This document shows positions 1 through 4,819 of a stretch of DNA of 4,819 bases, one piece after another. The notes beneath the pieces were generated by a model. That model saw only the letters and a list, made by a program, of their open reading frames with translations. It made no database searches and was not told the DNA's origin. Location of the stretch: IMG/VR virus record IMGVR_UViG_2703719355_000023. The stretch is one strand, 5' to 3'. This DNA comes from a virus. Its lineage: Duplodnaviria > Heunggongvirae > Uroviricota > Caudoviricetes. Each line of letters begins with the position of its first letter. Position 1 is the first letter of the stretch. Both the position numbers and the translations under genes were made by a program.

Positions 1-1764
1 GTCATCCTGTTTACCTCTTTCTCAGGGAGTTTAGTCTCCAGGATTTCCGGGGCGGTTCATGGTGAATTTGTTGACGGAATTAGCGACCCGAACGATCCGA
101 AATGGGTAAAGGGGATCCAGACTCGCGACTCTGTGTACCAGAACCAGCCAGAAACGAAACAAAACACGCCAGAAACTGTAAAAACCAGCCCGGATGTGAA
201 ACAACCTGAGCCAGTAGTGCAACAGAAACCGGAAATAGTCTGCAATGCCTGCGGTCAGACTGGCGGGGATAACTGCCCTGACTGTGGTGCGGTGATGGGC
301 GACGCAACATACCAGGAAACATTCGATGAAGAGAATCAGGTTGAAGCTAAGGAAAATGATCCGGAGGAAATGGAAGGCGCTGAACATCCGCACAATGAGA
401 ATGCTGGCAGCGATCCGCATCGTGATTGCAGTGATGAAACTGGTGAAGCGTCAGCTCCTGTAGCAACTGAAATCATGTGGCCGTCATATTTCGAGCCTGG
501 CCGCTATGAAAACCTCCCGAACGAGGTTTATCACTCCGCCAACGGAATAAGCAGCACGATGCTGAAGGATGCCCGTATCAGCCTGATGTATTACCACGGA
601 CGGCACATTGCCGGAACTATTCCGAACGAGGAAAGTGATGCACTGCTGCGTGGGCGGATCATTCACAGCTATGTTCTGGAAACGGATAAATTCGCTGATG
701 AATATGCCATTCCGGTACCGGTTCCTGAATATGTGGTTACTACTTCTAGCGAACTGATCGCCATCATTAAAAAACACAATGCCAGTCTGCCAGCACTGAT
801 GACACCAGAGCAGATGAAAGAGTGGATCGAAAGCTACAACAGCACTCTTATACAGCCACTGTCTGTAAGTGCCGGGGCCGAAGAAACAGGCATCCTTTAC
901 GGTTCGCTTCCGGTGGAATTTCGGCGTATTCCTGAGGGGGAAAAACACACAGCATCAGCAATGAAAGCCTGTATTAAAGAATACAACGCAAGCCTCCCTC
1001 CTCTGTTGAAAACCAGTGGAGCACGGGAGCAGCTTCTGGATCAAATTGAAACTGTAGACCCAGAACTGGCAAAAAAAGAACGTGCTAAATCTTTGCCTTA
1101 CAACATCAGTGGCACAAAAGAGCAATTAACCGAAATCGCACGGAAAATTCGCCCGGAACTGGTGACACTGGAGGACTGGCAAAAACGCCAGCAAGAAGAA
1201 AATGCCGGGAAAACGTTTATCAGTCCGGAGATGTATGAACAGGCAAAAAATATTCACGCGGCACTGCAAAACAATACCGATGCAGCAAGGCTACTCAACC
1301 ACCCGGATCGCAAATCTGAAATCAGCTATTTCGGGTTTGATGAAGAAACCGGGCTGGAAATCAGGGTCCGTCCTGATATCGAAATCCGGCTGCCATACGA
1401 AAGCATTTGCGCTGACGTGAAGTCAGTCAGCCTCGGTTATGTGCGACAGGAACGACTTAAAGATCGCCTGCACCGTGAAATTATTGAGCGTGATTATCAC
1501 CTCAGCGCCGCAATGTATTGCGATGTGGCAAACCTGGACAAATTTTTCTGGATCTTCGTCAACAAAGATGCTGGCTATCACTGGGTGGCAGTCGTGGAAG
1601 CCTCGCAGGAACTCCTGGAACTTGGTCGACAGGAATATCGCCGGACGCTACGCCAGATAAACGAAGCCCTGGAGACAAACAACTGGCCAGCACCGATTAC
1701 CGAAAGTTATACCGACGAATTAAACGACTTTGATCTTCGTCGTCTTGAAGCACTGAGCATCTGA
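1..1764 (+). CDS. RecE-like 5'-3' dsDNA exonuclease (exodeoxyribonuclease VIII-like), 5'-partial; gene continues upstream of the window
   Basis: Frame 1 has no stop codon from nt 1 to TGA at 1762-1764, and the translation of nt 1-132 looks protein-like. The GTG at 133 used by the ORF track is probably internal. A PD-(D/E)XK-type nuclease motif is present near the C-terminus (R-P-D at 1369-1377, D-V-K at 1414-1422). An acidic low-complexity linker lies upstream of the nuclease region. The gene sits immediately upstream of, and is probably translationally linked to, a RecT-family gene, as recE is in Rac prophage. Confidence 0.6.
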   Translation, partial: VILFTSFSGSLVSRISGAVHGEFVDGISDPNDPKWVKGIQTRDSVYQNQPETKQNTPETVKTSPDVKQPEPVVQQKPEIVCNACGQTGGDNCPDCGAVMGDATYQETFDEENQVEAKENDPEEMEGAEHPHNENAGSDPHRDCSDETGEASAPVATEIMWPSYFEPGRYENLPNEVYHSANGISSTMLKDARISLMYYHGRHIAGTIPNEESDALLRGRIIHSYVLETDKFADEYAIPVPVPEYVVTTSSELIAIIKKHNASLPALMTPEQMKEWIESYNSTLIQPLSVSAGAEETGILYGSLPVEFRRIPEGEKHTASAMKACIKEYNASLPPLLKTSGAREQLLDQIETVDPELAKKERAKSLPYNISGTKEQLTEIARKIRPELVTLEDWQKRQQEENAGKTFISPEMYEQAKNIHAALQNNTDAARLLNHPDRKSEISYFGFDEETGLEIRVRPDIEIRLPYESICADVKSVSLGYVRQERLKDRLHREIIERDYHLSAAMYCDVANLDKFFWIFVNKDAGYHWVAVVEASQELLELGRQEYRRTLRQINEALETNNWPAPITESYTDELNDFDLRRLEALSI

Positions 1765-1775
1765 GGAAGGACACA

Positions 1776-2828
1776 ATGAACGAATTAACTCAACAAGAAA
1801 ATATTAACTCTAATGTTGCGGTTTTCAGCCCTCAGTCCATGGCTGCAATTCAGACATTTTCCCAGGTAATGGCTTCCGGCATGGCTACTGTACCGGAACA
1901 CCTCCGAGGAAATCCATCAGACTGCATGGCCATCACCATGCAGGCGATGCAGTGGCAAATGAACCCTTACGCAGTAGCTCAGAAAACTTTCGTTGTGAAT
2001 GGTGTGCTCGGATATGAAGCGCAACTGGTTAATGCCGTAATCAGTACTCGTGGGCCGCTAACCGGGCGTATTGAATATGACTGGTTCGGGCCGTGGGAAA
2101 AAATTATCGGGAAATTTGAAATCAGGAAGAGCGACAAAGGGAAAGAATATCGTGTACCTGGCTGGAAGCTGGCCGATGAAAACGGGATCGGTGTTCGTGT
2201 CCAGGCAACACTACGCGGCGAAAGTAAACCACGCGTACTGGAATTACTTCTGGCGCAGGCCAGAACACGTAACTCAACGCTATGGGCCGACGATCCTCGC
2301 CAGCAGCTTGCCTATCTAGCGCTGAAACGCTGGGCGCGCCTTTATTGCCCCGAAGTGATTCTTGGAGTGTACACCAGGGACGAACTGGACGAGCCACAGG
2401 AAAAAATCATTAATCCGGTTCAGGAACATAAAAACACTTCCGCTTGCCGCGCGGAACGTGAAACAACAATTATTGAGCAGGATGCCGGGGAAAACTGGAT
2501 CGATGCTTTCCGTGAACGTATTGAGCAGGCACAAAGCACCGGGGAAACAACAGCACTTCGCCAGGAAGTGGAAGATCATAAAAATACACTTGGCGCTCTC
2601 TATACGGAACTTAAAGGAAAAGTGGTTCAGCGTCATCACCGTCTCAATGCTATTGCCCGTATCGAGAAGATGATAAATGACCTACCTTCTTCAGGTGATC
2701 CAGAAGCAGAACAAAAATTTACTGCTCTGGAAAATACGCTGAATGCTGCCCGGCCACATCTGGGTGAATTATATGAGGCGTATAAAACGACACTGACAGA
2801 TATGAAACCAGAATATATCGGCTCCTGA
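1776..2828 (+). CDS. RecT-family single-strand annealing protein (phage recombinase), divergent from K-12 RecT, with a C-terminal extension
   Basis: ATG at 1776 is preceded by GAGGAAGG (1763-1770) at 5-nt spacing; stop TGA at 2826-2828. The N-terminal half has a RecT-like core pattern (GNPSDCMAITMQAMQWQMNP ... LGYEAQLVNAVISTRGP), comparable from memory to K-12 RecT GNCDTMSFVSAIVQCSQLGLEP ... GYRGMIDLARRSGQ. No Walker A motif is present, so it is not a Sak4/RecA-like protein. It occupies the recT position downstream of the exonuclease. Confidence 0.55.
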   Translation: MNELTQQENINSNVAVFSPQSMAAIQTFSQVMASGMATVPEHLRGNPSDCMAITMQAMQWQMNPYAVAQKTFVVNGVLGYEAQLVNAVISTRGPLTGRIEYDWFGPWEKIIGKFEIRKSDKGKEYRVPGWKLADENGIGVRVQATLRGESKPRVLELLLAQARTRNSTLWADDPRQQLAYLALKRWARLYCPEVILGVYTRDELDEPQEKIINPVQEHKNTSACRAERETTIIEQDAGENWIDAFRERIEQAQSTGETTALRQEVEDHKNTLGALYTELKGKVVQRHHRLNAIARIEKMINDLPSSGDPEAEQKFTALENTLNAARPHLGELYEAYKTTLTDMKPEYIGS

Positions 2829-2838
2829 TATTGACTTT

Positions 2839-2858
2839 GGCGGTGTAGCCTCACCGCC
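2839..2858 (+). other. Stem-loop (7-bp GC-rich stem GGCGGTG / CACCGCC, 6-nt loop) in the recT-ralR intergenic region; possible weak terminator or RNA processing/regulatory hairpin
   Basis: Inverted repeat at 2839-2845 and 2852-2858, 11 nt after the annealing-protein stop. It is followed by an A/T-rich stretch with T-runs at 2868-2871 and 2873-2876, but the T-tract is not directly adjacent to the stem. Confidence 0.2.
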
Positions 2859-2891
2859 ATCACAAAATTTTATTTTATGAGAGAAAAGACA

Positions 2892-3086
2892 ATGCGGTAT
2901 GAAAAAGTCAAACCATGCCCTTTTTGTGGTTGTCCATCAGTAACGGTGAAAGCCATTTCAGGATATTACCGCGCGAAGTGTAACGGATGCGAATCCCGAA
3001 CCGGCTATGGTGGAAGTGAAAAAGAAGCACTCGAACGATGGAATAAACGAACCACTGGAAATAATAATGGAGGTGTTCATGTATAA
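2892..3086 (+). CDS. ralR: Lar/RalR restriction-alleviation protein (zinc-ribbon; also described as the RalR DNase toxin of the RalR/RalA type I toxin-antitoxin pair)
   Basis: The 64-aa product MRYEKVKPCPFCGCPSVTVKAISGYYRAKCNGCESRTGYGGSEKEALERWNKR... has a CPFCG...CNGC four-cysteine motif typical of the Lar family and matches my recollection of Rac RalR in length and sequence. Start chosen at the second ATG (2892) to give the 64-aa form. It sits in the Rac-syntenic position between recT and ydaC. Confidence 0.7.
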   Translation: MRYEKVKPCPFCGCPSVTVKAISGYYRAKCNGCESRTGYGGSEKEALERWNKRTTGNNNGGVHV

Positions 3087-3267
3087 AATTACCGCCACTA
3101 TTGAAAAGGAAGGTGGCACTCCTACTAACTGGACAAGGTACTCAAAAACAAAATTAACCAAATCAGAATGCGAAAAAATGCTCTCAGGTAAAAAAGAAGC
3201 AGGCGTTTCCAGAGAGCAGAAAGTAAAACTGATAAATTTTAATTGCGAGCAACTTCAGTCCTCGTGA
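3079..3267 (+). CDS. ydaC: YdaC-like small prophage protein (DUF1187-type), function unknown
   Basis: ORF MYKITATIEKEGGTPTNWTRYSKTKLTKSECEKMLSGKKEAGVSREQKVKLINFNCEQLQSS. GGAGGTG at 3069-3075 precedes ATG at 3079, and this ATG overlaps the ralR stop (ATGTATAA). An upstream in-frame ATG at 3067 is also possible. Stop TGA at 3265-3267. Position matches ydaC of Rac prophage. Confidence 0.55.
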   Translation: MYKITATIEKEGGTPTNWTRYSKTKLTKSECEKMLSGKKEAGVSREQKVKLINFNCEQLQSS

Positions 3268-3284
3268 ATTGCATTGTATTCAAA

Positions 3285-3313
3285 TTAAAACTTCATAGCT
3301 GATTATTAATAAT
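3285..3313 (+). promoter_or_regulatory. Candidate sigma70 promoter for xis-int (-35 TTAAAA, 17-bp spacer, -10 AATAAT)
   Basis: Hexamers at 3285-3290 and 3308-3313 with a 17-bp spacer; the -10 overlaps the palindrome. The region is AT-rich, so alternative hexamer assignments are possible. Confidence 0.2.
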
Positions 3314-3314
3314 C
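3301..3314. promoter_or_regulatory. Perfect 14-bp palindrome GATTATTAATAATC, candidate operator upstream of xis-int
   Basis: The sequence at 3301-3314 is its own reverse complement (half-sites GATTATT / AATAATC). It lies in the 99-bp gap between ydaC and xis, overlapping a possible -10 element. Confidence 0.3.
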
Positions 3315-3366
3315 AACATCGGGCGTCAATTTCAGTCTAACATTGGCGCCTGCCAGAGGTGATGCG

Positions 3367-3582
3367 ATGGCACAAGTAATCTTTAATGAAGAGTGGATGG
3401 TTGAATACGGCCTGATGCTTCGCACTGGTCTGGGGGCCAGACAAATTGAAGCATACCGCCAGAACTGTTGGGTGGAAGGCTTCCACTTCAAACGAGTATC
3501 TCCTTTAGGGAAGCCAGACAGTAAGCGAGGGATTATCTGGTACAACTATCCAAAGATAAATCAGTTTATCAAAGACTCATGA
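3367..3582 (+). CDS. xisR: Excisionase (XisR/YdaQ-like)
   Basis: The 71-aa product [71 protein letters not shown] is preceded by GAGGTGA (3355-3361). Its stop TGA (3580-3582) lies one nucleotide before the integrase ATG (3584), the usual xis-int arrangement. Size and sequence fit my recollection of Rac XisR. Confidence 0.65.
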
Positions 3583-3583
3583 T

Positions 3584-4513
3584 ATGTCTAAATTACCAAC
3601 AGGTGTCGAGATTCGAGGTAAATACATTCGCATCTGGTTCATGTTTCGAGGAAAACGATGTCGGGAAACATTGAAAGGCTGGGAGGTTACTAACAGTAAC
3701 ATTAAAAAAGCCGGGAATTTAAGAGCGTTGATAGTTCATGAAATCAATTCCGGTGAATTTGAGTATTTAAGACGTTTCCCCCAGTCCAGCACTGGGGCAA
3801 AAATGGTGACAACGAGGGTCATAAAAACGTTCGGGGAGCTTTGTGATATCTGGACAAAAATTAAAGAGACAGAGTTAACAACAAACACAATGAAGAAAAC
3901 GAAATCACAATTAAAAACACTCAGGATAATAATTTGTGAGAGTACCCCAATATCACATATTCGTTATAGCGATATCTTAAACTACCGGAATGAACTGCTG
4001 CATGGAGAAACGCTTTACCTGGATAATCCAAGATCCAACAAAAAAGGAAGAACCGTGCGCACAGTTGATAACTATATCGCCCTGCTCTGTTCGTTGTTAC
4101 GTTTTGCGTATCAGTCGGGATTTATATCAACCAAACCATTTGAAGGAGTAAAAAAATTACAGCGAAACAGAATAAAGCCTGATCCGTTATCTAAAACAGA
4201 ATTCAATGCATTAATGGAAAGTGAAAAAGGACAGAGCCAGAACTTGTGGAAATTTGCCGTTTACTCCGGGCTTCGTCACGGGGAACTGGCTGCTCTGGCG
4301 TGGGAGGATGTGGATTTCGAGAAGGGAATTGTGAATGTCAGAAGAAACCTGACGATACTTGATATGTTCGGTCCCCCAAAAACAAATGCGGGGATTCGGA
4401 CGGTAACACTACTGCGGCCTGCTATTGAAGCACTGAAGGAGCAATACAAACTAACCGGGCATCATCGCAAAAGCGAAATCACTTTTTATCATCGGGAGTA
4501 CGGCAGAACCTAA
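3584..4513 (+). CDS. Truncated integrase N-terminal product (arm-binding and core-binding regions, no catalytic R-H/Tyr) translatable from the interrupted int gene
   Basis: 309-codon ORF from ATG 3584 to TAA 4511-4513, directly downstream of xis. It is the translatable portion of the disrupted integrase frame. Confidence 0.45.
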   Translation: MSKLPTGVEIRGKYIRIWFMFRGKRCRETLKGWEVTNSNIKKAGNLRALIVHEINSGEFEYLRRFPQSSTGAKMVTTRVIKTFGELCDIWTKIKETELTTNTMKKTKSQLKTLRIIICESTPISHIRYSDILNYRNELLHGETLYLDNPRSNKKGRTVRTVDNYIALLCSLLRFAYQSGFISTKPFEGVKKLQRNRIKPDPLSKTEFNALMESEKGQSQNLWKFAVYSGLRHGELAALAWEDVDFEKGIVNVRRNLTILDMFGPPKTNAGIRTVTLLRPAIEALKEQYKLTGHHRKSEITFYHREYGRT

Positions 4514-4819
4514 AAGCAAAAACTGCATTTTGTTTTCATGCCCAGGGTGTGTAACGGAAAACAGAAACCTTATTACTCGGTAAGCAGTCTGGGGGCGAGA
4601 TGGAATGCAGCAGTAAAACGTGCTGGTATTCGCCGCCGTAATCCGTACCATACGCGGCATACTTTTGCCTGCTGGTTGTTGACGGCAGGAGCGAACCCGG
4701 CATTTATAGCCAGCCAGATGGGGCATGAAACTGCGCAGATGGTGTATGAAATTTACGGTATGTGGATTGATGACATGAACGACGAACAGGTAGCTATGTT
4801 GAATGCGCGGTTATCATAG
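3584..4819 (+). pseudogene. intR: Rac-type tyrosine integrase, reading frame interrupted by an in-frame TAA at 4511-4513
   Basis: One continuous frame (frame 2) runs from ATG 3584 to TAG 4817-4819, 411 codons, with a single internal stop at 4511-4513 (...EYGRT*KQKLHF...). The N-terminus (MSKLPTGVEIRGKYIRIWFMFRGKRCRETLKGW...) looks like a lambda-type arm-binding domain. The catalytic signature R-H-T-F-A (4655-4669) and the C-terminal GHETAQMVYEIYGMW with the candidate catalytic Tyr (4745-4756) lie downstream of the stop. Confidence 0.7.

Follow-up and report, generated by a model that had tools for sequence, protein, structure and literature searches.

The stretch of DNA analysed here (the window, 4,819 nucleotides) corresponds to bases 3-4821 of GenBank contig CYGN01000050.1, from draft assembly GCA_001286505.1, and no differences were seen between the two. 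Positions 3584-4819, read in one frame, comprise 412 codons: the last is the natural stop (4817-4819), and a single internal stop, TAA, interrupts the frame at codon 310. The ORF listing of the window divides this frame into an ORF of 309 aa (3584-4513) and one of 93 aa (4538-4819). The frame is that of intR, which encodes a Rac-type tyrosine integrase, and it is preceded by genes of the same prophage and by one end of an insertion sequence (Table 1). On the source contig, intR is followed on its 3' side by ttcA, dbpA, ynaL, zntB, dgcM and smrA. These neighbouring chromosomal genes are all at full reference length, so the contig assembly is of good quality.

Table 1. Features of the window and residues of the intR reading frame, in window coordinates.
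Feature	Position	Strand	Remarks
IS629/IS1203 (IS3-family) end	1..59	-	59 bases; interrupts recE
recE, 3' part	60-1764
recT	1776-2828		350 aa
ralR/lar	2892-3086		upstream of DUF1187 gene
DUF1187 gene	3079-3267		upstream of xisR
RalA antitoxin sRNA	3085-3263	-	full length; Rfam RF02694, 215 bits (gathering score 170)
xisR (ydaQ) excisionase	3367..3582	+	intact, 71 aa; PF06806, E=6e-21
intR pseudogene	3584..4819	+	Rac-type tyrosine integrase, 411 codons + stop, broken at codon 310
309-aa N-terminal product	3584..4513	+	would be translated; GenBank CUA48044.1
Arm-type DNA-binding domain	3596..3790	+	residues 5-69, retained; Pfam PF12167 (Arm-DNA-bind_2), E=1.7e-26, profile 1-65/65
Core-binding (SAM-like) region	3827..4144	+	residues ~82-187, retained; weak Pfam matches, just under curated cut-offs
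Catalytic domain, first half	4196..4510	+	residues 205-309; PF00589 profile positions 6-100/172
Arg I, R231	4274-4276	+	before stop
Beta-hairpin Lys, K266	4379-4381	+	before stop
Premature TAA, codon 310	4511..4513	+	ancestral GAA (Glu310), G-to-T at 4511
In-frame remnant, catalytic domain second half	4514..4819	+	untranslated; PF00589 profile positions 107-165
H356	4649-4651	+	after stop
R358	4655-4657	+	after stop
H381	4724-4726	+	after stop
Y388	4745-4747	+	after stop
Y391	4754-4756	+	after stop

Of 5,426 complete E. coli genomes, 2,919 contain a match to the 1236-nt frame, annotated there as intR ("tyrosine-type recombinase/integrase"); the best matches are 99.9% identical, with a single mismatch. 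Intact annotated copies in relatives measure 1236 nt and 411 aa, in agreement with the length that the first-pass annotation had given for Rac IntR. Compared with K-12 intR (b1345), the window showed 43 differences over 1236 nt (96.5% DNA identity), which amount to six amino-acid substitutions in addition to the stop. Identity was greater (99.8-99.9%) to the annotated intR of O145, O157 and other strains, among them the Rac-like prophages of O145:H28 and O157:H7 EHEC (Sp10/CP-933R type), MEI003 and Z1323CEC0019. In MEI003 and Z1323CEC0019, base 4511 is the sole difference from the window intR. The intR copies of these EHEC strains, MEI003 and Z1323CEC0019 are intact and annotated as functional (WP_000040838.1), whereas the window copy is broken.

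Gene order in the matched genomes is xisR, then intR, then ttcA-dbpA-ynaL-zntB. The same xisR-intR-ttcA order is found in K-12 MG1655, whose record labels the region cryptic prophage Rac. K-12 IntR also has the same 411-codon frame and the same Pfam architecture of Arm-DNA-bind_2 plus Phage_integrase; it differs in keeping Glu310, where the window has a stop that leaves 309 aa lacking the C-terminal catalytic residues. Orthology to Rac intR rests on the 96.5% DNA identity, the limited protein divergence (six amino-acid differences and the stop) and the shared neighbours xisR and ttcA/dbpA/zntB. Identity thus extends over the full length of the gene, and the xisR/ttcA context at the prophage/chromosome junction is the one expected of Rac IntR orthologues. 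We are confident that the window comes from a Rac-like cryptic prophage inserted at ttcA in one E. coli isolate (GCA_001286505.1), and that it represents the end nearest the integrase.

The first-pass annotation had described the excisionase as intact, and XisR was indeed identical to the K-12 protein; at the DNA level xisR was identical to that of O145 RM9872. RalA lies antisense to the DUF1187 gene and to the 3' end of ralR, and the type I RalR/RalA toxin-antitoxin pair appears intact from its sequence. At the other end of the window, bases 1-59 matched the ends of IS629 on pO157 Sakai and in other records with 100% identity. Homology to recE begins at base 60, which places the IS junction at 59/60. 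The source contig begins two bases before the window, and a start at IS629 is typical of short-read contigs, which break at repeats. The exact IS629/recE junction was absent from the 5,426 complete E. coli genomes searched. Three matches to the junction query at 82.6% were rejected, being IS1203 insertions that adjoin another gene. Z1323CEC0019 also has IS1203 in recE, at another site. One prophage copy in this isolate carries two independent lesions, the IS in recE and the nonsense codon in intR. The insertion of IS629 that cuts recE, a sign that the element was already decaying, had been overlooked in the first-pass annotation.

The window and K-12 Rac also differ in their recET alleles, in addition to the cut made in recE by IS629. 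In the window recT has a 350-aa product and lies clear of recE; K-12 recT encodes 269 aa and overlaps recE. Among the other loci compared, the 350-aa form was seen in three complete genomes (L001-L003), in the source contig (L004) and in L009, and the 269-aa form in L005, L007, L008, L011 and L012 as well as in K-12. The presence of both recT forms among Rac-like loci with near-identical intR indicates that the recET module is mosaic. A further difference was observed beside intR, in the first ~17 codons of ttcA (source contig L004, 4873-4930), which read …CAAAAGAATACGAAGAAAGAGATATACAAC… in the isolate and O145 and …CAACAAATTACAAAGAAAGAACAATACAAC… in K-12 (L015). The differing 5' stretch of ttcA is the att-overlap region that sets the N-terminus of TtcA (PMC4632033). 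The number of promoter- and terminator-like sites around intR and ttcA was not significantly greater than the shuffled expectation, and none fell in the untranslated remnant of intR.

Translation of the window agreed with the initial description of intR as a frame intact over 411 codons except for an in-frame TAA at codon 310. Across window positions 60-4819, only two bases differed from E. coli O145 RM9872, so the stop does not belong to an open frame that arose by chance. The first, at 4180, is synonymous (CCT versus CCA); the second is base 4511, which is T in the window and G in RM9872. Codon 310 was GAA (Glu) in K-12, in the three complete genomes and in ten other public loci (L005-L014). 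Since GAA was found in all relatives examined, the change is a G-to-T transversion from a glutamate codon. The first-pass annotation had suggested a transition from CAA (Gln), which these alignments do not bear out; the alignment to intact Rac-type integrases that it had proposed gives Glu as the residue at this position. None of the intact homologues ends at codon 310. The allele thus has the form of a nonsense pseudogene, with a premature stop where homologues hold a sense codon and an otherwise colinear frame.

The T allele was then sought in other genomes. A 37-mer carrying it, in which every megablast seed word spans the T, found no match in the 5,426 complete E. coli genomes. With the G allele, the control 37-mer matched 1,835 of the 5,426, perfectly in 1,826 cases; these matches rule out masking by the low-complexity filter as the cause of the zero for the T allele. 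Among 1,882 genomes, a 90-base query with the T allele matched none at 100%. Records of the exact 309-aa product are limited to one draft assembly at NCBI (CUA48044.1) and one Logan assembly, in each case on a contig of 20-50 kb; the Logan assembly may share the NCBI read set and is perhaps not independent. The stretch from 60 to 4819 is separated from RM9872 by only two substitutions, which makes the mutation a recent one. Its absence from all 5,426 genomes, with the product recorded only for GCA_001286505.1 and one Logan assembly, marks it as private. By these sequence comparisons, the T allele is a recent change private to one isolate.

An allele that comes from a single isolate's data and is seen in none of the complete genomes could also stem from faulty sequencing or assembly of a short-read draft, in which case the gene would really be intact. 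An error would also fit the fragmented state of the source draft, in which the contig breaks at an IS. However, the change is a substitution that leaves homopolymer lengths unaltered and is not the typical type of error. The NCBI and Logan assemblies agree on the 309-aa product and carry it on long contigs, with the reservation on a shared read set given above. The rest of window 60-4819 showed one other differing base only relative to the closest relative, and the other genes on the contig are full length, unlike those of a clearly error-ridden assembly (L013). We consider an error at 4511 quite unlikely, and a genuine G-to-T change is the reading adopted below.

To describe what the stop removes, the domains of IntR were delimited on the restored frame. 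The Phage_integrase catalytic domain spans residues 205-391, and the restored 411-aa frame matches PF00589 over profile positions 6-165/172 (E=6.7e-23). The 309-aa product does not hold a complete PF00589 catalytic domain, since it covers profile positions 6-100 only. The break falls inside the catalytic fold, at about position 100/172 of the profile, and not at a domain boundary. The N-terminal arm-type domain matched by PF12167 is of the kind found in heterobivalent phage integrases. Core-binding matches scored just below their cut-offs (21.9 against 22.6 bits for PF14659, 17.3 against 22.3 for PF13102). Retention of the DNA-binding regions by the fragment, as first proposed, was seen both in the arm-binding residues (5-69) and in the core-binding region. 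The R-K-H-R-H/W-Y set is not found in one polypeptide, as four of its six residues, including the nucleophile, lie after the stop. The loss of the R-H box and the tyrosine nucleophile had also been part of the first-pass description, and the region of the H-x-x-R box, the second His and the Tyr were all located downstream.

The nearest solved tyrosine recombinase by sequence is Tn1549 Int (PDB 6EMY/6EMZ/6EN0), a distant relative (E about 5e-8) with a different N-terminal domain. It aligns over IntR residues 150-393, which include the core-binding and catalytic regions, with conservation of the GLR (Arg I), RHTF and MGH motifs. The Tn1549 Int residue opposite IntR R231, in GLR, is the Arg changed to Lys in 6EMZ. 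The RHTF box (R358, together with H356 and H359), MGH (H381) and the tyrosine region (Y388/Y391) are all found past residue 310. I390, the neighbour of Y391, is the IntR residue opposite the Tn1549 Int tyrosine that is mutated to Phe in 6EMY. With this alignment one residue out of register, Y391 is the likely nucleophile and Y388 a second candidate. Strand cleavage by tyrosine recombinases needs the residues that are lost here. From this general mechanism, IntR(1-309) would be unable to cleave or rejoin DNA.

The second half of the frame could still contribute if the stop were read through, by programmed recoding or by an ochre suppressor tRNA, to give the full-length integrase. The downstream frame is perfectly preserved, as readthrough would predict, yet a preserved frame is also expected of a very recent mutation, here with two substitutions relative to the nearest relative. 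No homologue carries a stop at this codon; a conserved recoding site is therefore lacking, and a search of the stop region of intR for Rfam elements found none. UAA is not known to be used for selenocysteine or pyrrolysine. Readthrough to a working integrase is extremely improbable.

Lesions elsewhere in intR show how commonly the gene is broken. Ten other loci (L005-L014) carry broken alleles of the same gene at the same locus, with the identical 93-aa C-terminal ORF called separately; this ORF stands as a separate gene on dozens of contigs. A frameshift at codon 264, from C5 to C4, was found in two sequence backgrounds. The deletion lies in the run GGTCCCCCAAAAAC (window-equivalent 4372-4376) and was present in three Logan assemblies (L009, L011 and L012); it may mark a site of repeated slippage, or else an assembly or sequencing artefact that recurs at the homopolymer. 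Other alleles had a 1-bp deletion at codon 274, a T5-to-T4 frameshift at codon 300 or an IS-associated truncation. In two loci a 491-bp internal inversion was found (L005 2510-3000 and L014 2411-2901; intR nt 464-954). The inversion is bounded by an inverted repeat of ~7 bases (GGAAGAAC.../...GTTTTC region) and divides intR into three: a piece of 173 aa, an antisense segment and the 93-aa piece. The codon-310 nonsense change was seen in none of the disrupted alleles of L005-L014. Partial forms were also frequent in the 90% IntR cluster, especially from Shigella, and of the 2,919 complete genomes that matched intR at all, 1,087 retained under 80% of the gene. The integrase gene is lost again and again, as would be expected of a decaying cryptic prophage.

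These other alleles bear on whether IntR(1-309) is functional, either by itself or with the 93-aa C-terminal ORF, as an arm-site or core-site binder or as part of a split integrase that reassembles. A fragment of this kind might modulate XisR/att complexes or block the integration of incoming Rac-like phages. Its arm-binding domain is complete and its core-binding region present, and the N-terminal domains of lambda Int bind DNA on their own. The frame after the stop is also still open from ATG 4538, which begins the 93-aa ORF. However, the sequence upstream of this ATG, AAGCAAAAACTGCATTTTGTTTTC, holds no Shine-Dalgarno-like sequence, and the break lies within the catalytic fold instead of at a domain boundary; a split enzyme formed by re-initiation at ATG 4538 was rejected as unlikely on these two points. 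The allele is private to one isolate, with no sign of spread or conservation, and breaks at many different places in intR of other isolates are what one would expect from neutral decay, not from selection for a single product. A functional role for the fragment is very unlikely. The stability of the 309-aa fragment and the arm-site binding proposed for it in the first-pass annotation are uncertain because its end falls in the middle of the catalytic domain. We likewise give little credence to a stably made, catalytically dead IntR 1-309 that binds arm and core sites and has been domesticated rather than left as debris. If this were true, the dead fragment might hold the Rac-like prophage at its site, change ttcA-proximal expression or hinder the integration of incoming Rac-like phages.

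The preferred reading remains simple loss of the integrase, and its probable consequence concerns excision. Rac is integrated in ttcA and is excised precisely when XisR, the excisionase, and IntR are overproduced (PMC4632033; PMC11014345). The isolate-specific G-to-T change at 4511 turned the Glu310 codon (GAA) of IntR into TAA, and translation stops after 309 residues. The product retains both DNA-binding regions (arm and core) and, in the first half of the catalytic domain, R231 and K266; it is without H356/R358, H381 and the Tyr nucleophile. Excision of K-12 Rac needs both IntR and XisR. With the nucleophile lost and both proteins needed, this prophage copy should not excise itself despite its intact XisR. 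We infer loss of self-excision with strong confidence from the sequence. In principle, an integrase from a second Rac-like element could act in trans, and some complete E. coli genomes hold two intR copies. The other end of the prophage, with its att site, is on a different contig from the window. The stop in intR is best seen as a pseudogenising change, neutral or nearly so, in an element already decaying, with IS629 in recE.

Taken as a whole, the locus holds a private nonsense pseudogene of a well-known gene, an ordinary case of routine prophage decay. There is no sign of recoding, of selection favouring the truncated form or of a new mechanism. GenBank already contains the allele, with the gene split into two 'phage integrase' CDSs (CUA48044.1 and CUA48050.1). 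It provides a further example of the well-known loss of integrase during prophage domestication and has little import beyond correct annotation. For the isolate itself, the Rac-like prophage is very probably fixed in the chromosome, and fixation would preserve the TtcA N-terminus encoded by the prophage as well as the Rac cargo genes, including recT, ralR/RalA and others.
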